This document shows, piece by piece, positions 500 to 13,091 of a stretch of 64,000 nt of DNA. Position 1 is the stretch's first letter. Every line of letters begins with the position of its first letter. This stretch comes from Escherichia coli (GTDB lineage: Bacteria > Pseudomonadota > Gammaproteobacteria > Enterobacterales > Enterobacteriaceae). Position numbers and translations under genes: made by a program. Location of the stretch: the NCBI RefSeq assembly GCF_029227855.1, contig NZ_CP074356.1; one strand, written 5' to 3'. The notes below the pieces were generated by a model. That model worked only from the letters and a program-made list of their open reading frames with translations, was not told the DNA's origin and did no database searches.

Positions 500-775
500 A
501 TGTCGATGTACACAACCGCCCAGCTGCTGGCGGCAAATGAGCAGAAATTTAAGTTTGATCCGCTGTTTCTGCGTCTCTTTTTCCGTGAGAGCTATCCCTT
601 CACCACGGAGAAAGTCTATCTCTCACAAATTCCGGGGCTGGTAAACATGGCGCTGTACGTTTCGCCGATTGTTTCCGGTGAGGTTATCCGCTCCCGTGGC
701 GGCTCCACCTCTGAATTTACGCCGGGATATGTCAAGCCGAAGCACTTAGCATGGCTTTCTGAGGCTTTCGTGTAG
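500..775 (+). pseudogene. E: major capsid protein E, 5' fragment (first ~82 codons), interrupted at 735-744 by an inserted element
   Basis: From ATG 500 the product MSMYTTAQLLAANEQKF...GYVKPKH is lambda gpE N-terminus; after the core at 735-744 the frame continues into unrelated sequence and stops at 775. Confidence 0.92.
735..744. repeat. attL core / target-site direct repeat (AGCCGAAGCA)
   Basis: Identical 10-mer recurs at 11864-11873; prophage E sequence resumes exactly after the right copy. Confidence 0.85.
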
Positions 776-872
776 CTGCTGGTTTTTACACTTAATCTTT
801 TGATAATAAAGAATAAGTTTATCTGGCGCTTTCACTGAATTTTCCTCGTTATCTGTGTGTTGCAATCATCTC

Positions 873-892
873 TGTATTGCAGCTTGTATTGC
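873..892 (+). promoter_or_regulatory. tandem TGTATTGC motifs (TGTATTGCAGCTTGTATTGC), putative integrase arm-type binding sites overlapping the int 5' region
   Basis: Near-identical 20-mer (TGTATTGCAGCATGTATTGC) recurs at 11769-11788 just inside the other att core. Confidence 0.5.
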
Positions 893-907
893 TTTTTGGG
901 GCTAAAA

Positions 908-2143
908 ATGGCTGGCGAGAACAAACTGAGCGACAAAGCGCTTAAAGGATATCTGGGGAAACCCAGAGAAAAGCAGATCACCATTGCTGATGGAAAGGGG
1001 CTTTCTATTCGTGTGAGTACTAAAGGGGCTGTGAGCTTTGTTTTCTTCTACAGGTTAGCAGGTGGCCGGGCTGCTCCGGTCTGGCTAACGTTGGGTAAAT
1101 ATCCTGATATGTCACTCAAACAGGCAAGGGAAAAGCGCGACGAGTGCCGTGGTTGGTTGGCTGACAAACGTGATCCGCGTATCCAGATTAAGATTCAGGC
1201 TGAAGAACGCTTAAAGCCGGTCACAGTGGAGGATGCACTAAATTACTGGTATGAAAATTACTGTAAGGTGCGTCGTAAAACTCATGCTGTAACGCTTGGC
1301 AGATTTCGAAAGCATATCTTTCCCTATATCGGTCATTTGCCCGTAAATGACACTCACCTATATGAATAGCTGGACTGTTTTGACCGAATTAAACGTAATG
1401 CACCAGTTATGGCGGCGTATGTTTTTTCTGACACTAAATTAGCTCTTCGTTTTTGTCGGGTACGCCAGTACGCGACGTGTGATGCTTTAAAGGATTTGCG
1501 CATGAGTGATGTGGGGCAGATTGCAGGTAAGCGGGATCGGGTTCTGGATGAGGTCGAACTCGGCCAGCTCTGGAAGGCAATTTTTGTCGAGCCTGATTTA
1601 AAACTAATGTCTGAATACACGCGAAAAATGTTTGTGCTTTGTACAGTATTTGGATGTCGAATGAGTGAAGCCCGATTATCAGAATGGAGCGAATGGGATC
1701 TCGAAAGTTGGGTTTGGACTGTGCCAAAAGATCACTCAAAAACTGGTGTTGAAATCGTCAGACCAGTACCTGAAATTCTACGACAGTGGGTAACGGATGT
1801 TCACGAAGAGACAAAACATACTGGTTATGTGCTGGGAAGTCTGCGAATTAGAGAAAGCGTAAGCAAGATTGGGGGGAAAATCGGTAAACGTTTGGGCCAT
1901 GAAAAACAATGGTCACTACACGACCTTAGAAGAACGCTATCTACTCATCTAAGTGATCTCGGTGTTGAATTTTATGTAGTAGAACAACTGTTAGGCCATG
2001 CGCTACCTGGCGTGGCAGGTGTTTACAACCGGAGTAAGTTTATGGCTAAAAAACTGGATGCTCTGGAACTCTGGACTACATATCTCAATAGCATCGCAGC
2101 TGCTGATTCAAAAGTGACAATCCTCAAACAAAAGGCTGGTTAG
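908..2143 (+). pseudogene. int: P4-type tyrosine integrase interrupted by an in-frame amber codon (TAG at 1367-1369)
   Basis: ORFs 857-1369 and 1409-2143 are in the same frame, separated by one TAG; N-terminal arm-binding region (MAGENKLSDKALKGYLGK...) and C-terminal catalytic region with HDLRRT, LLGHA and VYNRS (Tyr) motifs. Confidence 0.85.
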
Positions 2144-2144
2144 C

Positions 2145-2375
2145 ATGAAAAAAATGGCAATTGTTGATAAAAAGGGTCTGGAGTACATTCCTAACATTGA
2201 CCGAATGATCCGTGAGAAAGAATGTCGGGAGCTAACTACTCTTGCGAACAGCACACGCTGGAAGCTGGAGAAGGAAGGAAAATTTCCTAAGCGGATCAAG
2301 ATTGGTTCCACTGCTGTTGCATATCGTCTTTCAGAAGTGCAGGCATGGATTCGAGGTGAGTGGGAAACAACTTAA
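2145..2375 (+). CDS. alpA: AlpA-family HTH transcriptional regulator / excisionase-like protein
   Basis: 76-aa product with AlpA-type HTH (RIKIGSTAVAYRLSEVQAWI); immediately downstream of int as in P4-like and PICI elements. Confidence 0.8.
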   Translation: MKKMAIVDKKGLEYIPNIDRMIREKECRELTTLANSTRWKLEKEGKFPKRIKIGSTAVAYRLSEVQAWIRGEWETT

Positions 2376-2382
2376 CTATTAG

Positions 2383-3213
2383 GTGGGCATTGTGGCTATA
2401 TTTCATTATACAGATCTTTTTGGTTTGAAAGGTATATTAGACTCTAATTCTTTATGGGCTACAAACATATATTTCTTAAATGATAAAGAGGAGTCTAACC
2501 ATGGATGTGAATGCTTTCGAAATACAATTAAAATAGTTGATGACAATATCATTCCAAAAGATAAGAAAACTATTTTGCTCAAGTCTCTTGACATGTATGA
2601 GAAAGGGAGGTTACAAAAAGAAAAAGGGATTGATAAACATGTTTATAGCATCTCTTTTTGTAAGGAAAACGATAAGTTAAGTCAGTGGAGAGGTTACGGA
2701 AATAAACAGGGTGTTTGCATTGAGTTTGATGCGGATGAACTTGTGAGCTTTTCTCAAAATATTTATTTAAATTGTGTTGCACATGATGTTATATATTCAA
2801 ATAATAACGATATTACTAAGATGAGTAAGGAGTTGGGAGAGTTTTTTTCTTGTAATGGTATTAATATTAAAGAAATGAATGATCATTTTGTAACAATGGT
2901 CTCTACGTATCAATTTATATCTAAATACATCCCATTTTTTAAACATCCTAGTTTTATCGAAGAGAATGAATTTAGATTGGTATTTACTCCGTGGATGCAA
3001 ATGCCAGATGTGCACTTCAGAATAAATAATAATGGGATCATCCCTTATATCATCATTGATAATAAAGATAATAGAAAGTTACCAATTAAAAGCATTACAA
3101 TTGGCCCGACAAACGATTATGATTTCATTGAGGCTGGTATAAAAATGTTCTTGGATTCAAGAGGATTTAGTTCTGTGGAAATTAAATCCTCATCAATTCC
3201 ATTCAGGGGGTAA
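2383..3213 (+). CDS. uncharacterised 276-aa protein, AT-rich accessory gene (candidate defence/abortive-infection cargo)
   Basis: Long ORF with GTG start at 2383 (alternative GTG at 2392 has AGGTGG 5 nt upstream); visibly AT-rich relative to int and primase; no confident family match by eye. Confidence 0.6.
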   Translation: MGIVAIFHYTDLFGLKGILDSNSLWATNIYFLNDKEESNHGCECFRNTIKIVDDNIIPKDKKTILLKSLDMYEKGRLQKEKGIDKHVYSISFCKENDKLSQWRGYGNKQGVCIEFDADELVSFSQNIYLNCVAHDVIYSNNNDITKMSKELGEFFSCNGINIKEMNDHFVTMVSTYQFISKYIPFFKHPSFIEENEFRLVFTPWMQMPDVHFRINNNGIIPYIIIDNKDNRKLPIKSITIGPTNDYDFIEAGIKMFLDSRGFSSVEIKSSSIPFRG

Positions 3214-3344
3214 GGATTAACACTTTTAATCTATGATATTATAAAAATGGTGGATAAAGGCGACCAGAATTGGTCGCCAATGTGAGTATATAGTTAGCCT
3301 TAATCAGAATACGAGGTTATCGCCTGATAGGCAATGTGAACAGT

Positions 3345-3701
3345 TCAATATTTAGGTGGTTCAACAAGAGCGTTTATCATTGCTCTCAAATTATCGCGAA
3401 CACTTATCCAAGTCTGTTCTGCTCGTTCTAACTCATCAGTGTACAACTTTAATGTTTTATCTATGCCATATGTGGCTATTAAATTTATAGCTTCTTGTAA
3501 TTTTTCAGGATTATTCCTTCTTGGGGGAGTGAATATACCACGGATTTTTCCGGTAATTAAAGCTTTACGGTGTCTACATAGAATACCTTTACTTCCTGCT
3601 GGACAATTACAAGTCATGATTAGCGAGCCAGAATCGTTTGATACAGTGACTATGTATACATCCAAACTACTGCTACTTGTTGCGAAGAATTCGTATTTCA
3701 T
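3345..3701 (-). CDS. SWIM-type zinc-finger protein (118 aa)
   Basis: CxC...CxH motif (CNCPAGSKGILCRH); AAGGAG Shine-Dalgarno about 8 nt upstream of the ATG; downstream of the Arc-like gene on the same strand. Confidence 0.6.
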   Translation of the reverse strand: MKYEFFATSSSSLDVYIVTVSNDSGSLIMTCNCPAGSKGILCRHRKALITGKIRGIFTPPRRNNPEKLQEAINLIATYGIDKTLKLYTDELERAEQTWISVRDNLRAMINALVEPPKY

Positions 3702-3728
3702 GTGTTAGCTCCTTGACTTCAATTATTC

Positions 3729-3920
3729 TTATCCTTTTGGTTCAATACCGCGCCGTAGCAGCTCTTTGCGCCCTAATTCTTTAAGCCAGTTGGCTAGGCT
3801 TATGCCGTCGCTCTGCGCTTCTTTGTCGAATTGCTCTTTTAGCTCTGGAGAAATTCGCATTCTGAATTGTGGAGATTGCCCATCACCCTTAGGACTTTTA
3901 TCGCGTTTGATCGTTGACAA
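3729..3920 (-). CDS. Arc/MetJ-type ribbon-helix-helix DNA-binding protein (candidate satellite repressor)
   Basis: C-terminal part ...PQFRMRISPELKEQFDKEAQSDGISLANWLKELGRKEL resembles Arc repressor; start uncertain (TTG at 3920 with AGGTGG upstream, or ATG further in; ORF track gives 3729-4043); divergent from the + strand operon that starts at 4060. Confidence 0.55.
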   Translation of the reverse strand: MSTIKRDKSPKGDGQSPQFRMRISPELKEQFDKEAQSDGISLANWLKELGRKELLRRGIEPKG

Positions 3921-4059
3921 GTGACCACCTATTGAATTAGCCTTTTCATTGTTAGGTGACCACCTTAACACGGGGGCACTTAAAAAAGCAAAGCCCGAAG
4001 GTGCTGGGAACACCAACGGGCTTCTAACCACCAACGATAGCAACAGTATCGAGGTAGCT

Positions 4060-4263
4060 ATGAGAAATCATACCACACACCCGCAAGGGCGGGACCCGCA
4101 CAACCTGAATAAATACATCTGGCGTTTTATCGCCTTGAGTACGGCACAACCGCGCATGATTACCATCGAGGCCATCAGCGAACAGGAAGCCCGCCAGCAA
4201 TCCCCAACTGGCTGCGTGATGGTATTCGCCGCCCGTATTCGTCAGGAGGTGTGCCGTGCTTAA
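4060..4263 (+). CDS. hypothetical small protein (first gene of operon leading to primase)
   Basis: ATG 4060 preceded by GAGG; in frame with ORF 3949-4263. Confidence 0.45.
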   Translation: MRNHTTHPQGRDPHNLNKYIWRFIALSTAQPRMITIEAISEQEARQQSPTGCVMVFAARIRQEVCRA

Positions 4264-4441
4264 AACCTTCCGTGTATTTGCCCGAGCTGTTAACCCACTG
4301 GGCCACACAATTGGTATCACTCAGAACGTGAAGGCTGTTAATGTTCAGACGGCTATTGCTGCGGTGAGAAGCGAATCATCAGAATATGGCTTATCACAAG
4401 TCATTATTTCAGCAGTGTATGAATTAAAAGAGGTGCATTAA
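4256..4441 (+). CDS. hypothetical small protein (61 aa)
   Basis: ORF whose start overlaps the upstream stop (translational coupling). Confidence 0.4.
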   Translation: MLKTFRVFARAVNPLGHTIGITQNVKAVNVQTAIAAVRSESSEYGLSQVIISAVYELKEVH

Positions 4442-4632
4442 TGCAGGAAATCACATTACACGAAGCCGCTGAACGTGCGCACCAGACAGAAATTATTTGC
4501 CGCCTTCTTGAGGTATACCCGAACAAAATTACAGATGCTGATATATCCGCGCTGGCGAGCCTACTGGCGCGCCTTTCGGGAAGTGTCGCTAGTTTCCTGA
4601 TTGAGGAAGAAAGTAAGCTGGTGGGGGATTAA
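4441..4632 (+). CDS. hypothetical small protein (63 aa)
   Basis: ATG overlaps upstream stop (TAATG); co-directional operon. Confidence 0.45.
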   Translation: MQEITLHEAAERAHQTEIICRLLEVYPNKITDADISALASLLARLSGSVASFLIEEESKLVGD

Positions 4633-4854
4633 ATGAATACAGAACGGGAAGTCTTTTTTAAATTGTTAGCATGTGCAGAAAGTTCATTAACTTTAAATAA
4701 TTCAGCAAAAGCAATATTAAATATGTGGCTTGATTGCATAAATGACAATGAAGATGCAAATATTGCTTATGGCCTGTTGTCACTTATTGATGAATCAGCA
4801 GAAAAACTCAATGACGCAATAAATAGTGCCCTGCTATCAAATAAGTCGAGTTAA
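4633..4854 (+). CDS. hypothetical small protein (73 aa), AT-rich
   Basis: ORF directly abutting the upstream stop. Confidence 0.4.
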   Translation: MNTEREVFFKLLACAESSLTLNNSAKAILNMWLDCINDNEDANIAYGLLSLIDESAEKLNDAINSALLSNKSS

Positions 4855-4871
4855 GTCGAGGAATAAATAAT

Positions 4872-5171
4872 ATGGAAATGAAAAATTCTGGCTTTATTGC
4901 CAGCGGCCCCGCTCGGCCTGAATTTATGAACGGCGATATTTACCGCGATAAATACGGCGGCACGGTAACGATTAAAGGCGTGGCAGAACGGCGCATCACT
5001 TACCGCCGTGAGGGGTATAGCTATGACTGCGTGATGCCTGTTTATCAGTTCCGGCGTGATTTTTCCCTGGTATATGCCGCACCCCGCAGTAAGCCCATCA
5101 GCAGGGAAAAAGCGCGGGGAAACATCCAGAAAATGAAAAGCATGATTAACGCATTCAGGGGCAAAAAATGA
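4872..5171 (+). CDS. hypothetical protein (99 aa)
   Basis: ORF whose stop overlaps the primase start. Confidence 0.45.
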   Translation: MEMKNSGFIASGPARPEFMNGDIYRDKYGGTVTIKGVAERRITYRREGYSYDCVMPVYQFRRDFSLVYAAPRSKPISREKARGNIQKMKSMINAFRGKK

Positions 5172-6919
5172 AACTGGCACCGAACTTAAAAAAACAGCCA
5201 CGCGACAGACTGACAGAGGTAATCATCTTTGCAGGTAGTGATGCGTGGAGCCATGCGAAAGAGTGGCGGGAATGGGCGGGTAAACATATTGCCGCCGACG
5301 ATGTGCCGCCTGTCGTGCTGGCTGATGAGCAACTGAAAAATATCACCGATTACCGGATCATTGATGAAGATCGTCAGTGTGTGCGTGTTTACCGCGCAGG
5401 ACATATCACAGAGCACAGCATGACGCAGATTGTTACGTTACTGGCTGTGGCTGGAGTGAAGACCGTACACGAATACGCGGGGATTACTGACACCAGCCCA
5501 GTGGATTTATCCGAGCAGTTGCCGCGACTCAAAGAGGAATGCGAGCGTGGGGAAAGTCTGGTGCTTAATCTTCCGACGAAGCAAAAGGCGCAACTTTCAC
5601 AGATGGCAGACAGTGAACGTGCACAACTACTTGCCGATCGCTTTGATGGTGTGTGTGTTCATGCAGAAAGTGAAATCGTCCACGTATGGCGCGGCGGGGT
5701 ATGGTGTCCGGTCAGCACAATGGAGCTGAGCCGCGAAATGGTGGCGATCTATTCAGAGCACAGGGCCACGTTCAGCAAACGTGTAATCAATAACGCCGTG
5801 GAAGCGTTAAAAGTTATTGCCGACCCCATGGGGGAGCCGTCCGGTGATTTGCTACCGTTCACTAATGGTGTGCTTAACCTGAAAACGGGGGAATTTTCTC
5901 CGCACTCGCCGGAGCACTGGAGCACCACGCACAATGGCATTGAGTACACGCCACCAGTAGCAGGGGAAAACATCCGCGATAATGCGCCAAATTTCCATAA
6001 ATGGCTTGAACATGCTGCAAGAAAAGACCCGCGCAAGATGATGCGTATATGTGCCGCGTTATACATGATTATGGCGAACCGCTACGACTGGCAGATGTTC
6101 ATTGAGGCCACCGGAGACGGGGGAAGCGGTAAGAGTACATTTACCCATATTGCCACCCTGCTTGCTGGCAAACAGAACACCGTAAGCGCGGAGATGACAT
6201 CACTCGATGATGCAGGAGGGCGCGCGCAGGTTGTCGGGAGTCGTCTTATCGTCCTTGCCGATCAGCCGAAATATACGGGGGAAGGCACGGGCATCAAGAA
6301 AATCACGGGAGGCGATCCCGTTGAAATTAACCCGAAATATGAGAAGCGATTCACGACGATAATAAGGGCGGTGGTACTGGCAACCAATAACGACCCGATG
6401 ATCTTTACCGAACGGGCCGGAGGTGTGTCACGCCGTCGGGTGATTTTCCGGTTCGACAACATTGTAAGGGAGGACGAAAAAGACAAGGAATTACCGGAAA
6501 AGATAGCGGCAGAAATCCCCGTAATTATCCGCCGCTTGCTGGCTAATTTTGCTGACCCTGAAAAGGCACGGGCTTTATTACTGGAACAGCGTGACGGTGA
6601 TGAAGCTCTGGCAATAAAGCAGCAAACGGATCCGGTTGTTGAGCTTTGCGCGGCGCTGGAGTTTCTGGAGGAAGCTCGTGGGCTAATGATGGGCGGTGGT
6701 GGTGACACCGTGAAGTACACGACCAGAAACAGCCTTTACCGTGTCTATATGGCCTTCATGGCATACACAGGAAAGGGGAAATGTTTGAGCGTGAATGAGT
6801 TCGGAAAGGCTATGAGGTCAGCGGCGAAAGTTTACGGATATGAATATATTACGCGAAAAGTTAAGGGAGTCACGCAGACCAACGCAACGACTACTGATGA
6901 TTGCGATGCGTTTTTATAA
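5168..6919 (+). CDS. P4-alpha-type replication primase/helicase (phage/plasmid primase, P4 family C-terminal domain)
   Basis: 583-aa product with Walker A GDGGSGKST and surrounding blocks typical of P4-family primase C-terminal domains; followed by iterons. Confidence 0.85.
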   Translation: MKLAPNLKKQPRDRLTEVIIFAGSDAWSHAKEWREWAGKHIAADDVPPVVLADEQLKNITDYRIIDEDRQCVRVYRAGHITEHSMTQIVTLLAVAGVKTVHEYAGITDTSPVDLSEQLPRLKEECERGESLVLNLPTKQKAQLSQMADSERAQLLADRFDGVCVHAESEIVHVWRGGVWCPVSTMELSREMVAIYSEHRATFSKRVINNAVEALKVIADPMGEPSGDLLPFTNGVLNLKTGEFSPHSPEHWSTTHNGIEYTPPVAGENIRDNAPNFHKWLEHAARKDPRKMMRICAALYMIMANRYDWQMFIEATGDGGSGKSTFTHIATLLAGKQNTVSAEMTSLDDAGGRAQVVGSRLIVLADQPKYTGEGTGIKKITGGDPVEINPKYEKRFTTIIRAVVLATNNDPMIFTERAGGVSRRRVIFRFDNIVREDEKDKELPEKIAAEIPVIIRRLLANFADPEKARALLLEQRDGDEALAIKQQTDPVVELCAALEFLEEARGLMMGGGGDTVKYTTRNSLYRVYMAFMAYTGKGKCLSVNEFGKAMRSAAKVYGYEYITRKVKGVTQTNATTTDDCDAFL

Positions 6920-6933
6920 AAAATGGCAATGGT

Positions 6934-7161
6934 TATCTACCTTGTCTACCTGACTGAAAGAAAATACTTTTATTTCAATGTATTAATGCAGGTAGATAAC
7001 TATTTTTCACTGTCTACCTGTTATCTACCTTATCTACCCATTTTTGTAGACAGGTAAGGAGACGGGTAGAGATGAGGTAGACAGCTATTTGGGGCTGTCT
7101 ACCTCCCTGAAACCCGCGCCATTACTGGCCTGATAACTAATCAGGTAGACAAGGTAGACAA
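6934..7161. repeat. replication-origin iterons (about 12 copies of T[GT]TCTACC / GGTAGA[CT]A in both orientations)
   Basis: Dense cluster of the 8-9-bp motif in the non-coding stretch immediately downstream of the primase gene. Confidence 0.75.
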
Positions 7162-7208
7162 GGTGGTGGTGCACAAAAAACTTTTTAAACGAGGGGGTAA
7201 AAATAAAA

Positions 7209-7466
7209 ATGCACACTTCAGGAAAACTGAACAAACATATAAAGCCACATTACCGCGCCCTTGATATGGCTGAACACTGGCTAAGGGTGGCGATTAAGGC
7301 AATAGACCGCAACGCCGGGGAAGGATACGCGAAAGCACATCCCGAACTGATAAGCGCATTCATGACAACGGCGGCTGCAAACTTTGCCACGCTGACCGAA
7401 CGGGAGATTGCTGAAGCGGAGGAAGTGACAACAATCAATATTAAGTCCGGAGAGCAGGCAGCATGA
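7209..7466 (+). CDS. hypothetical protein (85 aa)
   Basis: ORF whose stop overlaps the ssb start (ATGA). Confidence 0.45.
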   Translation: MHTSGKLNKHIKPHYRALDMAEHWLRVAIKAIDRNAGEGYAKAHPELISAFMTTAAANFATLTEREIAEAEEVTTINIKSGEQAA

Positions 7467-7912
7467 CGGCGCAAATATCAGTTTACGGGCGGTTGGTGGA
7501 CGACCCGCAGACAAAACAGACCAGCAAGGGCACCCCCATGACGCTGGCGCGTATGGCGGTATCACTGCCCTGCAGTCAGTCGGATGACGGTCTGGCGACG
7601 TTGTGGTTATCTGTCCTGGCGTTTGGCAGACAAGCCGACGCGCTGGCAAAGCATCACAAAGGCGAACTCCTGAGCGTGGCGGGTAACATGCAGATGAGCC
7701 AGTGGACTGGACAGAACGGCGAAACGCGGCAGGGCTGGCAGGTTATCGCAGACAGCGTAATCAGTGCGCGATCGGTGCGACCGGGCGGCAAAAAAGGCCA
7801 ACAGGGGCAGGCTACTGACGCACTGAACAGAGCAAAACAACAGGCAGATCAGCAAGGAAGCCAGCCACCAGAGGGAGATAATGAGCAATGGGGAGATGAT
7901 ATCCCGTTTTAA
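7463..7912 (+). CDS. ssb: single-stranded DNA-binding protein (SSB)
   Basis: 149-aa product with OB-fold-like N-terminal region and acidic C-terminal tail ending DDIPF. Confidence 0.75.
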   Translation: MTAQISVYGRLVDDPQTKQTSKGTPMTLARMAVSLPCSQSDDGLATLWLSVLAFGRQADALAKHHKGELLSVAGNMQMSQWTGQNGETRQGWQVIADSVISARSVRPGGKKGQQGQATDALNRAKQQADQQGSQPPEGDNEQWGDDIPF

Positions 7913-8128
7913 ATATTGCCAATAAAAAAAGCCGGAAAAAATAAATTTTCCGGCATGCTACATAAATCCCGACCAAAGGGAGTGAAGATATTAACACTAA
8001 TTGTCCGCACTGAAGTTGTCACACCAAAACTTTATACAACATTGCACTCGGTTGCATGTGTTCGCATGACAAATATCGGTGATAGCATATATCCACAATT
8101 ATTTTTAATGAATGCAAAGAGGATGCGT

Positions 8129-9169
8129 ATGGTTGATTTATATTCGCCTACTCAGCTTGTACAGGTAGTTAATGCTGTAGATGTACAAAAACAACTAAAT
8201 GCGTTGTTTACCAGTTTGTTTTTTACTCGCTCGGTAATGTTTGAATCGCGCGATATTATTCTTGATACAATCGACGATCCAAATATCCCAATTGCAGCGT
8301 TTTGTTCTCCTATGGTGGGTAGTAAAGTTTCACGTGACGAAGGGTACGAATCAAAAACAATTCGTCCAGGCTATATGAAGCCGAAAAGCAGCATTGATCC
8401 AAATAAGTTAGCTGTGCGCCCTGCTGGTGTGTCACCTGAGCAATACAATGCTTTTGGGGCGCGTAATATTAAAGTTAAACAGGCGATTGTAAATCAGGCT
8501 AAAGCTATTCGTGCACGTATTGAATGGCTTGCTGTTCAGGCAATCACAACGGGGAAAAATATCATTGAGGGCGATGGTATTGAACGTTATGAGCTGGACT
8601 GGAATATAAAACCACAAAATATCATCACTCAGTCTGGCGGTACTGAGTGGTCAGGTAAGGATAAAGAAACTTTTGATCCAAATGATGATATTGAGAGCTA
8701 CGCAGAATTTAGTGAGGGCGTCACTAATATCATCATTATGGGTGGTAATGTATGGAAGAAATACCGTTCATTCAGAGCGATAAAAGAGGCTTTGGATACC
8801 CGTCGTGGTTCTAATTCCGAACTGGAAACGGCCCTTAAAGACCTTGGTGATTCGGTGAGTTTTAAAGGGTATATGGGCGATGTTGCGATTGTTGTTTACA
8901 GCGGGCGTTATACCGACGAGGACGGAACAGAAAAACATTTCCTTGATCCTGATTTGATGGTGCTTGGCAATACGGCTCTTCAGGGGATTGTCGCCTATGG
9001 CGGTATTCAGGATCCGGAGCTAATCCGAATGGGGCTGACTAAAGCCGAACTTGCACCGAAAAACTATATTGTGCCTGGTGATCCGGCTATTGAATATGTG
9101 CAGACACATTCAGCACCACAGCCAATACCGGCCCGCATCAATCGTTTTGTTACCGTTCGCATTGGCTAA
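8129..9169 (+). CDS. major capsid protein paralogue (lambda gpE-like) encoded by the satellite
   Basis: ORF 7916-9169; from ATG 8129 (GAGG upstream) the product aligns collinearly with the prophage's own E, sharing blocks ITQSGGTEWS, DTRRGS.SELETA.KDLG and GDVAIVVYSG. Confidence 0.85.
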   Translation: MVDLYSPTQLVQVVNAVDVQKQLNALFTSLFFTRSVMFESRDIILDTIDDPNIPIAAFCSPMVGSKVSRDEGYESKTIRPGYMKPKSSIDPNKLAVRPAGVSPEQYNAFGARNIKVKQAIVNQAKAIRARIEWLAVQAITTGKNIIEGDGIERYELDWNIKPQNIITQSGGTEWSGKDKETFDPNDDIESYAEFSEGVTNIIIMGGNVWKKYRSFRAIKEALDTRRGSNSELETALKDLGDSVSFKGYMGDVAIVVYSGRYTDEDGTEKHFLDPDLMVLGNTALQGIVAYGGIQDPELIRMGLTKAELAPKNYIVPGDPAIEYVQTHSAPQPIPARINRFVTVRIG

Positions 9170-9178
9170 GGGGGAGCA

Positions 9179-9520
9179 ATGGCTACTCATTACACTGAAC
9201 TCATGGCTGGCACTGAAGCACTGGTGACTACGCTGGGGATATTTTCAGCTAATAAAGGGGTAATTCCTGCATTTACGCCACTGATGCAGGAAGATGCAAC
9301 AGGTGCACTGGTGGTATGGGATGGTTCGAGCGTAGGTAAAGCGGTTTATGTTTCCGCTGTACAAATCGACACCGCGAAAAAAACACAGGCTCAGGTCTAT
9401 AAGACAGGTGTCTTAAATGTTGATGCTCTGAACTGGCCTGAGTCTGTTAAAGAACTGTCAGTAAAGGTTGCAGCGTTTGTTGGCTCAGGTATTTCTGTTC
9501 AGCCGCTGGCTCGTGTGTAA
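9179..9520 (+). CDS. head decoration protein paralogue (lambda gpD-like) encoded by the satellite
   Basis: 113-aa product alignable with prophage D at 112-444 (LVVWDGSSVGKAV versus [13 protein letters not shown]; shared C-terminal G.AISV region). Confidence 0.75.
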   Translation: MATHYTELMAGTEALVTTLGIFSANKGVIPAFTPLMQEDATGALVVWDGSSVGKAVYVSAVQIDTAKKTQAQVYKTGVLNVDALNWPESVKELSVKVAAFVGSGISVQPLARV

Positions 9521-9531
9521 AGGGGGATACA

Positions 9532-9915
9532 ATGCAGAATGATTACAATGACCTTAAGCCAATTGCCGAAATGATGTACCCGAATCAAGCTGTAGAGGAA
9601 TTAAAAGCTATCGCTGACAAAATGTGTTTAAGCGAGCGCCTTGTTGATATGAATCAGGTGATGGAAATTACAACCCTGAGTCGTCGTACACTGCTAAACC
9701 TTGAGGCTAGTGGAGAGTTCCCGGAGCGTGTGCAGGTTACGGAAGGGCGTAAGGCCTGGTATTTAAGTGAAGTGATCGACTGGATAAATAATATTCCTCG
9801 CGCTTCTGAATATTGCCGCGTACCTGTCCCAAAAAAGCCAGATGCGGCGCTATGCCTCAAGATTGAGCGTGTACGCCGCAATGCACGGGATGGTCGCTAT
9901 AAGCTGATTGGTTGA
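9532..9915 (+). CDS. AlpA-family HTH protein adjacent to cos (candidate packaging-redirection or regulatory protein)
   Basis: 127-aa product with AlpA-type HTH (ITTLSRRTLLNLEASGEFPERVQV) and a basic C-terminal extension; immediately upstream of the cos site. Confidence 0.55.
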   Translation: MQNDYNDLKPIAEMMYPNQAVEELKAIADKMCLSERLVDMNQVMEITTLSRRTLLNLEASGEFPERVQVTEGRKAWYLSEVIDWINNIPRASEYCRVPVPKKPDAALCLKIERVRRNARDGRYKLIG

Positions 9916-9923
9916 TGAAATTA

Positions 9924-9950
9924 GGACCCGCTCTGGCTGGCGGGTCCTTT
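9924..9950 (+). terminator. hairpin terminator-like element after gene 9532-9915
   Basis: GGACCCG...CGGGTCC stem followed by TTT. Confidence 0.4.
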
Positions 9951-10145
9951 CCGGCGATCCAGAACGTTACGGGGCGTCAGGCGCGCAGTTTTTCGCTATT
10001 TGTGAAAATTTTCCTGTTTAAGGCGTTTCCGTTCTTCTTCGCCGTAACTTAATGTTTTTATTAAAAACACCCCCTAAAAAGAAAGGAAACGACAGGTGCT
10101 AAAAACAGGCTTTTTGGCCTCTGTCGTTTCCTTTCTCTGGTTTTG
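9940..10145. other. lambda-type cos site (cosN-equivalent at about 9972-9983; cosB R3-I1-R2-R1 to about 10140)
   Basis: Stretch TTTTCGCTATTTGTGAAAATTTTCCTGTTTAAGGCGTTTCCGTTCTTCTTCG...AAAGAAAGGAAACGACAGGTGCT...GGCTTTTTGGCCTCTGTCGTTTCCTTTCTCTG closely matches the left end of phage lambda (cosB) from memory; cosN 12-mer reads GGGCGTCAGGCG instead of GGGCGGCGACCT; no Nu1 gene follows. Confidence 0.8.
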
Positions 10146-10513
10146 TTGCCATCCGTCGCGGTCTATCACCAGAAAAAATCTTATCCCTGAGTTGAATCAG
10201 GCCCTATTCAGAAGCGGCCAATAACGCGCCGCTAGCTTCACTTCATAGTTATGGCCTACTTCTGCGCCATTGCAATTGCTTTATGCGCCTTGATGGTGGA
10301 ATATAGAGCAAGCAGTTTGCGAATAACAAAGTTTCATATGTTTTTTGCTGTGTGGCTAGACAACTTTACAGCAGAGTTTTGTGTCAGTTCTTTATGTGTG
10401 CAAGCAAGCTTGAGGGGGAATTACTTCTGGCTGTATCTTTGCTTAAGAACAGCAATAATTTAATCATAAGGAAATGTATATAAGCCTGATTAAATTTCAG
10501 GCTTATTGAAATG

Positions 10514-11656
10514 TTAACTCCTTATTAGAGAGTAAATTCCATCCTCTTTAAGGAAGTCTATTACTTCAAAGAATGAGATAAAGAATTCCCAAGAACCAAA
10601 AGCATATGCATGAATTTCGTAAGGTGCAAAATGGAATCTAAATCCATCACTATTTATTGTGAACGAGTCTAAGTTACTATCCATGATACCCGTTGCAAAC
10701 GTACTAATGTCGTCCTCACTTGGTTTTTCACCAGTTTTCTCCCAAAATTCACGAGCTGATTCAGAGATTATTTTTTGTTTTATCTTATTAATCGCTTCTT
10801 GCTCTTTCCCTTCGGTAAATACATCCCATAAACTAAATTTGTATGCGTAGTCATCCTTGGTTATTACGAAATTACTAGTTTCAAAATGACTGTTAGGGTG
10901 TGCTGCTCCCGCACCATACCAATGTACGGAATGAAGGATGCTCATGACATTTTCGTTACAGTATGAGATGTTATAACTTTCATTATAGGAACTAGTGTAA
11001 GTGTGTTTATATTCTTCATCCCAATATGGTGTTCCTGGCCATAGTGATGTGCGTTCAGAAAAAATATGTAAAGCCGCTTTTCCTGAAAAGTAATCACTAA
11101 TGAGTTTTGCTGATTTCGGTAATGTATGGCTTTCAATTCTTGGATATGCTATTTCAATTTCATGCCCTGGGATCTTGTTATATTCTTCCTTGAAAACCTC
11201 GCTGCTAAAGTTAAATGGCCCATAAGTGATACCTTGAGATATTTCAAGTTTTTGTTGCGATGCTGCTAATCTTAAAGATCTAGATAAAATGTCCCAACCA
11301 TCATTTCTCTTAAAATCAATGAATTGGAGCTTGCTTGATATGTAGGCGGGTACTTCGCAATCATCAATAAGTAATGGTATCACGAACACATCATCTGGTT
11401 TGTAATACTTTAGTTTATCAATGGCGTCATTTATTTCGCGGCGAATATAACCATTTTTCTGAGTGCTCACTTTGCTAAGGATAAGGATTATCAAGTTTGA
11501 ATTAGCGAAGTTTTTTTGGATTTCATAATCCCAGTTTACGCCAGCGGGTATATCTTTTACATCCATCCAAGGGGAATATCCTCCACTTTTTAGCCTTTCA
11601 TAGATTTCTTCAGTTATCGTTTCATCTTCTTTTGCATGAGCAAGAAAAATTTTCAT
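10514..11656 (-). CDS. TIR-domain protein with C-terminal domain of unknown function (candidate anti-phage defence gene)
   Basis: 380-aa product; N-terminal about 135 aa looks like a TIR domain (MKIFLAHAKEDE...ILILSKVS...REINDAIDKL); C-terminal about 240 aa unassigned (contains HWYGAGAAHP motif); AT-rich; last gene before attR. Confidence 0.7.
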   Translation of the reverse strand: MKIFLAHAKEDETITEEIYERLKSGGYSPWMDVKDIPAGVNWDYEIQKNFANSNLIILILSKVSTQKNGYIRREINDAIDKLKYYKPDDVFVIPLLIDDCEVPAYISSKLQFIDFKRNDGWDILSRSLRLAASQQKLEISQGITYGPFNFSSEVFKEEYNKIPGHEIEIAYPRIESHTLPKSAKLISDYFSGKAALHIFSERTSLWPGTPYWDEEYKHTYTSSYNESYNISYCNENVMSILHSVHWYGAGAAHPNSHFETSNFVITKDDYAYKFSLWDVFTEGKEQEAINKIKQKIISESAREFWEKTGEKPSEDDISTFATGIMDSNLDSFTINSDGFRFHFAPYEIHAYAFGSWEFFISFFEVIDFLKEDGIYSLIRS

Positions 11657-11768
11657 TGAATATTCCTTTATAATTTAACTAATTAAGTGAAGGAGGCTTT
11701 ACTTGGCTGTGTTAGAAAAAATTCGGTTTGTTTTTTGTACGATGCCAAGAAGGCTTTTCCCTAACCAT

Positions 11769-11788
11769 GTATTGCAGCATGTATTGCT
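11769..11788 (+). promoter_or_regulatory. tandem TGTATTGC motifs (putative integrase arm-type sites, right arm)
   Basis: TGTATTGCAGCATGTATTGC, 19/20 identical to 873-892. Confidence 0.5.
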
Positions 11789-11863
11789 ACGTAATTCTGC
11801 ACCCTCTCATTTATAAAATAAATCTCTGTTAAATCAAGTATCTTTTTTCTATTTGACTCATGT

Positions 11864-11873
11864 AGCCGAAGCA
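11864..11873. repeat. attR core / target-site direct repeat (AGCCGAAGCA)
   Basis: Identical to 735-744; E sequence (HEVNPQMTL...) resumes from this point. Confidence 0.85.
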
Positions 11874-12699
11874 TGAGGTGAATCCGCAGATGACCCTGCG
11901 TCGCCTGCCGGATGAAGATCCGCAGAATCTGGCGGACCCGGCTTACCGCCGCCGTCGCATCATTATGCAGAACATGCGTGACGAAGAGCTGGCCATTGCC
12001 CAGGTCGAAGAGATGCAGGCAGTTTCTGCCGTGCTTAAGGGCAAATACACCATGACCGGTGAAGCCTTCGATCCGGTTGAGGTGGATATGGGCCGCAGTG
12101 AGGCGAATAACATCACGCAGTCCGGCGGCACGGAGTGGAGCAAGCGTGACAAGTCCACGTATGACCCGACCGACGATATCGAAGCCTACGCGCTGAACGC
12201 CAGCGGAGTGGTGAATATCATCGTGTTTGATCCGAAAGGCTGGGCGCTGTTCCGTTCCTTCAAAGCCGTCAAGGAGAAGCTGGATACTCGTCGCGGCTCT
12301 CATTCCGAGCTGGAGACAGCGGTGAAAGACCTGGGCAAAGCGGTGTCCTACAAGGGGATGTATGGCGATGTGGCCATCGTCGTGTATTCCGGACAGTACG
12401 TGGAAAACGGCGTCAAAAAGAACTTCCTGCCGGACAACACGATGGTGCTGGGGAACACTCAGGCACGCGGTCTGCGCACCTATGGCTGCATTCAGGATGC
12501 GGACGCACAGCGCGAAGGCATTAACTCCTCTGCCCGTTACCCGAAAAACTGGGTGACCACCGGCGATCCGGCGCGTGAGTTCACCATGATTCAGTCAGCA
12601 CCGCTGATGCTGCTGGCTGACCCTGATGAGTTCGTGTCCGTACAACTGGCGCAATCGTGGCCCTTCGGGGCCATTTTCTCTCTGTGGAGGAGTCCATGA
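11864..12699 (+). pseudogene. E: major capsid protein E, 3' fragment (about 260 codons), with the lambda stop position read as CAA
   Basis: Product ...EVNPQMTLRRLPDEDPQ...DEFVSVQLA is lambda gpE from about residue 83; 500-744 plus 11874-12654 equals 1026 nt, the lambda E length; frame runs on 15 codons to TGA at 12697-12699. Confidence 0.9.
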
Positions 12700-13091
12700 C
12701 GAAAGATGAACTGATTGTCCGTCTCCGGTCGCTGGGTGAGCAACTGAACCGTGATGTCAGCCTGACGGGGACGAAAGAAGAACTGGCGCTCCGTGTGGCA
12801 GAGCTGGAAGAGGAGCTTGATGACACGGATGACGCTGCCGGTCAGGATACCCCTCTCAGACCGGAAAATGCGCTGACCGGACATGAAAATGAGGTGGTAT
12901 CAGAGCAGCCGGATACCATGATTGATACGGCTGCTCTGGTCACGGTCGTGGCACTGGTGACGCTGCATACTGATGCACTTCACGCCACGCGGGATGAACC
13001 TGTGGCATTTGTGCTGCCGGGAACGGCGTTTCGTGTCTCTGTCGGTGTGGCAGCCGAAATGACAGAACGTGGCCTGGCCAGAATGCAATAA
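12696..13091 (+). CDS. FI: DNA-packaging/head assembly protein FI
   Basis: Product MTKDELIVRLRSLGEQLNRD... matches lambda gpFI. Confidence 0.9.
   Translation: MTKDELIVRLRSLGEQLNRDVSLTGTKEELALRVAELEEELDDTDDAAGQDTPLRPENALTGHENEVVSEQPDTMIDTAALVTVVALVTLHTDALHATRDEPVAFVLPGTAFRVSVGVAAEMTERGLARMQ

Follow-up and report, generated by a model that had tools for sequence, protein, structure and literature searches.

Loss of the stop codon of a satellite-split capsid gene E in a lambda-like prophage of Escherichia coli: a private and probably neutral change

Main finding

The capsid gene E of the lambda-like prophage described here carries CAA where its TAA stop codon is expected, owing to a T-to-C transition at base 12652 of the window (the whole stretch of DNA analysed, 64,000 nucleotides long) that is real and private to this lineage. 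The explanation proposed, and the probable one, is that this private stop-loss arose by neutral drift in a composite of helper prophage and embedded satellite that had become locked. It can be set out in three steps. The transition would cause the E frame to read through the spacer between E and FI, adding 15 unselected residues; since E is already split at codons 79-82 by a satellite of 11.1 kb, the loss would have no present consequence; and a nonsense codon in the satellite integrase (W153*) would remove the enzyme needed to rebuild E, which would then be free to decay. We infer from this arrangement that the stop-loss mutation was neutral. The features on which the argument is built are collected in Table 1.

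Table 1. Features of the split E gene, the embedded satellite and the E-FI junction (window coordinates)
Feature	Position	Strand	Basis or remark
E 5' part, codons 1-82, up to the left identity-block copy	500..744	+	lambda alignment
Left copy of the 10-bp attachment identity block AGCCGAAGCA, E codons 79-82	735..744	+
Helper-embedded PICI (HE-PICI) of 11.1 kb, "11capE" type, in E and co-oriented with it	745..11863	+	boundaries by lambda alignment; Pfam
Tyrosine integrase gene with in-frame TAG at 1367-1369 (TGG to TAG, W153*; changed base 1368)	908..2143	+	alignment and translation against MRSN346647
Satellite E-like capsid gene	8129-9169
Satellite D-like decoration gene	9179-9520
TIR_2 + DUF3298 cargo gene, right end of the satellite	10514-11656	minus	sole gene of the satellite with this orientation
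Right copy of the 10-bp identity block AGCCGAAGCA	11864..11873	+
E 3' part, codons 79/82 to 341, from the right identity-block copy	11864..12651	+	lambda E alignment, starting at locus position 1063
CAA codon replacing the E stop; changed base 12652, T to C	12652..12654	+	alignment with relatives
Remainder of the read-through, 14 sense codons and TGA	12655..12699	+	normal E-FI intergenic spacer, not evolved coding sequence
GC-rich hairpin with UUCG loop, then a T-rich run; now within the extended frame	12657..12674	+	E-FI spacer
Intact FI gene; start codon overlapping the new E stop (ATGA)	12696..13091	+	ORF

The E-FI junction

In the frame of E, window 12640-12699 has the sequence GTA CAA CTG GCG CAA TCG TGG CCC TTC GGG GCC ATT TTC TCT CTG TGG AGG AGT CCA TGA. 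With CAA in the place of the stop, the frame stays open for 15 codons (QSWPFGAIFSLWRSP) until a TGA (12697-12699) that shares bases with the ATG of FI (12696-12698), and the open reading frame 11878..12699 has the translated C-terminal end ...VSVQLAQSWPFGAIFSLWRSP before its stop. The earlier note had described exactly this, and both the sequence and the alignment with lambda agree with it. Its statement that lambda E ends 44 nt before the FI start also matches the coordinates of NC_001416, where E occupies 6135..7160 and FI starts at 7202, so that the first base of TAA lies 44 nt before the FI ATG and the spacer measures 41 nt; and it is true, as the note held, that a restored E would bear a tail of 15 amino acids, the rejoined gene being otherwise intact. 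In the alignment, both lambda and phage 2H10 have TAA opposite the CAA of the window, and the two closest E. coli prophages, YZLc1-3 and PS_131_S11, have T at 12652 in an ungapped comparison, this base being the sole mismatch of a 701-base query against them (99.9% identity). T occupies the position in all of the aligned relatives (125/125).

The added residues have no coding history of their own: because the 15 codons are the normal E-FI spacer, the tail peptide is the accidental translation of a regulatory RNA, that is, of the hairpin and the ribosome-binding site, the Shine-Dalgarno sequence of FI (GGAGGAG) lying 3' of the hairpin and the T-rich run. When TAA is disregarded, all 120 IMG/VR relatives listed have this frame open as far as the same TGA, so that among the relatives sampled any loss of TAA would give the same extension of 15 residues. 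An outer position of the hairpin stem varies between A and G among these 120 loci, while the core GGCCCTTCGGGGCCAT was fixed in the search pattern and its constancy in the 120 loci is thus not independent.

Distribution of the variant among relatives

A single-base difference cannot be tested against chance alone, and its significance comes from the comparison with relatives. In 5,426 complete E. coli genomes, a megablast search with a 31-mer specific for the CAA version, which only a CAA-bearing sequence can seed, gave no match; the result is meaningful because the corresponding TAA control 31-mer matches perfectly at 2,072 places in 1,540 genomes of the same set. Among 50,697 phage records, too, megablast found nothing with the CAA-specific 31-mer, and an 89-base query spanning the site has no 100% match among 4,068 places in the 5,426 complete E. 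coli genomes. By exact-pattern scans, the CAA version is absent from IMG/VR and from metagenome contigs, and its only three matches in GTDB genomes are chance occurrences in unrelated bacteria. When the codon was left free in the pattern, IMG/VR yielded at least 120 loci, and all 120 among the matches listed read TAA, followed by at least 17 haplotypes of the spacer among those 120.

The same picture is obtained at the protein level. Searched against 5.8 billion clusters, the extended protein of 356 residues has no homologue that covers more than 341 residues and none with the tail, and a 72-aa C-terminal query found only short fragments and chimeras, all with the VSVQLA end. The length of the E family is tight at about 341 aa, with the C-terminus ...VSVQLA, and the longer matches represent N-terminal extensions, internal insertions or E-FI deletion fusions. 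Among the last, P0048 and P0049 (441 aa, in-frame, from public assemblies) have ...VSVQLA joined directly to ...LRVAELEE of FI, the product that a deletion between the copies of AACTGGCG in E and in FI would be expected to give (the region corresponds to window 12646-12800); P0051 and P0135 are further E-FI fusions.

Two readings had been left side by side in the earlier note, a natural variant and the early decay of an already disrupted gene, the former to be judged by whether lambda or close relatives share the extended frame. None was found to do so in the collections searched, and neither CAA nor the extended frame occurs in any relative, prophage, IMG/VR locus, metagenome or protein collection; a shared natural variant was therefore dropped, the stop-loss being a singleton across the E. 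coli, phage, IMG/VR, metagenome and protein searches. Decay is the best reading, with an amendment: E is not simply dead, since its split by an HE-PICI is a reversible one under which the gene is normally subject to selection (PMC10111431). Decay is plausible in this particular copy because the satellite integrase carries a private nonsense mutation of its own.

The split capsid gene and its satellite

From position 1 to 744, the window follows lambda nu3/D and the 5' 245 nt of E collinearly, and from 11864 onward it does the same for the rest of lambda E, FI and the tail genes. The insert between the two halves of E measures 11,119 bp and is flanked by the direct repeat AGCCGAAGCA. When rejoined, the 341 residues are 99% identical to lambda gpE, with three residue differences in addition to the stop, and differ from the E protein of PS_131_S11 only at K215 (the lambda state) and by *342Q. 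The homology to the lambda-type major capsid protein E extends over the full length, and the database matches carry PF03864 (Phage_cap_E). What is lacking is the single uninterrupted ORF of about 341 codons ending in ...VSVQLA and a stop, as the gene is split by 11.1 kb at codons 79-82 and has CAA for its stop. The E 3' fragment is without the native start, and it is not translated from upstream because an in-frame TAG (11861-11863), on the satellite side, immediately precedes it. As it stands, E is a gene remnant and not a functional member of its family.

The satellite belongs to a known type. The 11capE HE-PICIs, of which 201 instances have been reported (PMC10111431), are elements of about 11 kb in the E gene of lambdoid prophages, with a 10-bp identity block at the site named Phage_cap_E_80 (Tommasini, Mageeney & Williams 2023, PMC10111431). 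Upon induction, the composite excises and replicates, and then the satellite excises, restoring E (PMC10111431). In the window, the island lies co-oriented within the late genes of a lambda-like prophage, all its genes but the TIR gene being on the same strand, and its attL and attR share a short identity block near position 80 of E, matched to the published block by length and site name. Pfam assignments give the gene order tyrosine integrase, AlpA, DUF2971, D5-type primase, SSB, Phage_cap_E capsid homologue, lambda-D-type decoration protein, a second AlpA-like HTH protein and, on the minus strand, TIR-DUF3298; this comprises int and alpA, a variable zone, a primase/replication zone and a late zone with a capsid gene. 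From its domains, the TIR_2 + DUF3298 protein is likely to be anti-phage defence cargo.

Fifteen complete E. coli genomes share this satellite/E junction, those of IAI39 and MRSN346647 among them. The islands of these two strains are otherwise 97-98% identical to the one described here, with no megablast match to window 4256-7255, the central replication module (D5-type primase at 5168-6919 and small upstream ORFs), which indicates a putative mosaic swap of this module. At about window 2385, where the DUF2971 gene is annotated to begin, a G-run is one G shorter than in MRSN346647; either the start has moved to the GTG at 2383 or the first 8 codons are frameshifted. IAI39 (L008, 1573-4147) keeps the satellite/E junction but has undergone rearrangement on the left side; it lacks the prophage head genes, and what remains borders on tRNA-Arg. 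Its satellite integrase is interrupted by an IS3 element, and its primase contains an internal stop. This copy represents a more advanced state of decay, in which the E TAA is still kept.

In the 11capE system, both halves of E are expected to be under selection because excision of the satellite normally rebuilds the gene. Ten other sampled loci with the identical attR junction have an intact E 3' half of 262 codons ending in VSVQLA and a stop, and TAA is kept in L008 and L009, which have the same satellite in E; the retention of both halves and the stop in other copies is what a need to rebuild E upon excision would lead one to expect.

The satellite integrase and the state of the composite

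Compared with its counterpart on the MRSN346647 copy of the island, the satellite integrase shows about 99% identity; its nonsense codon falls between the N-terminal domains (arm-binding and SAM-like) and the catalytic domain (Pfam). The codon is TGG in all relatives that have this segment (7/7), and a 31-mer specific for the TAG version matched nothing in 5,426 E. coli genomes. On this basis, the integrase is predicted to be non-functional. Given the nonsense codon, excision would fail: the satellite is probably locked in place, and its excision is probably impossible now unless an integrase is supplied in trans. The E stop would then have been released from selection, because without integrase the satellite should not excise and E would not be rebuilt. 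Partial amber suppression, or another integrase acting in trans, could still permit excision.

Decay of the prophage is at an early stage and at most incipient, since all its tail genes within the window are intact, being full-length ORFs by comparison with the annotations of relatives. The state of the helper is judged from the genes in the window only, the upstream part of the prophage (regulation, terminase, portal) lying outside it. The right end of the prophage, at about 31384, falls within the tRNA-Ser gene adjoining zinT (the counterpart in JNEC-KY178 is L131, 750-839), and in JNEC-KY178, the nearest chromosome, the tRNA-Ser/zinT site is empty of prophage. Of the stop-loss and the integrase mutation, either may have come first; had it been the stop-loss, the extended gpE would once have been expressed and tolerated. 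In YZLc1-3 (L003, 2714-5329), the closest prophage relative, E is broken near its 5' end by the IS66-family element ISCro1 and there is no satellite.

Alternative explanations

Among the alternatives to neutral drift, a tolerated or functional variant is unlikely. According to this explanation, the change arose in an active composite, and either gpE with the tail assembles or the ATGA overlap couples the translation of FI to that of E. It is favoured by the otherwise intact state of the rejoined E, by the position of the new stop, whose overlap with the FI ATG is the classic arrangement for ATGA coupling, and by the in-frame E-FI fusions in public databases, which indicate that changes at the E C-terminus do occur in sequenced DNA. 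Against it stands the constancy of TAA in all 120 IMG/VR loci listed and in the 2,072 E. coli copies in spite of the variation of the spacer, which argues for purifying selection on the stop and suggests that a functional E is under selection against read-through. In addition, the length of the family and its ...VSVQLA end are conserved, the tail is merely a hairpin and a ribosome-binding site translated, the variant is a singleton, and translation from the native start cannot, in the present state, reach the E 3' fragment.

A sequencing or assembly error, with T as the true base and E ending normally, is quite improbable. A base that is unique among thousands of relatives is indeed what an artefact would produce. 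The accuracy of the assembly can be estimated from the chromosomal flank, where window 31384-64000 has 5 mismatches in 32,617 bases, and no gaps, against the independent complete genome JNEC-KY178, so that the substitution error rate would be at most about 1.5e-4 per base. Eight private alleles, 12652 among them, occur in the 8,781 prophage and satellite positions that are covered by at least 20 relatives, so that real private divergence in the prophage is estimated at about 9e-4 per base, several-fold above the ceiling from the flank, and the change at 12652 would be part of this ordinary background divergence. Moreover, its context, GGCGCAATC, is not a homopolymer. Five of the private changes are in tail genes, three of them non-synonymous (14915, 15948 and 16732, giving V T157M, T-frame P115S and H P234S) and two synonymous (15393 and 16434). 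A reading of relaxed selection from the private alleles was discarded, five coding changes being too few for a conclusion.

Very little probability is given to a stop-loss that is not neutral, whether it favours the satellite, the tailed gpE poisoning or altering the helper capsid, or is regulatory, ATGA coupling FI to E. If it were so, an integrase in trans or amber suppression would lead to excision and to a gpE with a hydrophobic tail of 15 residues, and an altered assembly of the helper capsid would favour the satellite's own E and D homologues. Finally, gene conversion, with the C imported from the satellite's own E-like capsid gene, has next to no probability and was ruled out: a paralogous capsid gene does lie 3.5 kb upstream, but its 3' end (…GTTACCGTTCGCATTGGCTAA) carries a TAA of its own and does not resemble CTGGCGCAATCG, the one further near-match within the window, at an unrelated place on the chromosome, has a single mismatch, and across the E-FI junction the window departs from the closest relatives at one base only.

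Significance

Neutral drift in a locked composite thus remains the reading proposed for the stop-loss, which taken alone is of little weight: a single private substitution, in a gene not currently expressible. Together with the private nonsense codon of the integrase, it probably marks a composite that has been immobilised and is starting to decay. Of more general bearing is the strict conservation of the gpE stop codon across thousands of lambda-like prophages in spite of a varying spacer.

Comparison with known systems

With respect to lambda, the E 3' part, the spacer hairpin, the FI ribosome-binding site and FI itself are collinear here and 96-97% identical, whereas E differs in having CAA for TAA, 15 extra open codons and the 11.1-kb insertion. 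The satellite resembles the 11capE (E_Phage_cap_E_80) HE-PICIs in its size of 11.1 kb, its position at codons 79-82, its 10-bp block, its order of int-alpA, replication and capsid genes and its own E homologue. Unlike them, it has a nonsense codon in the integrase and a helper E without its stop, and the composite is located at tRNA-Ser/zinT and not at icd. The stop-loss is ordinary and nothing new in kind, and the satellite type has already been published. As in other decaying prophage genes, a one-base change converts the stop into a sense codon, the frame reads through to the next in-frame stop and the gene is no longer expressed as a unit; compared with an ordinary prophage stop-loss, nothing is distinctive except that the gene affected is split in a system that is normally reversible.
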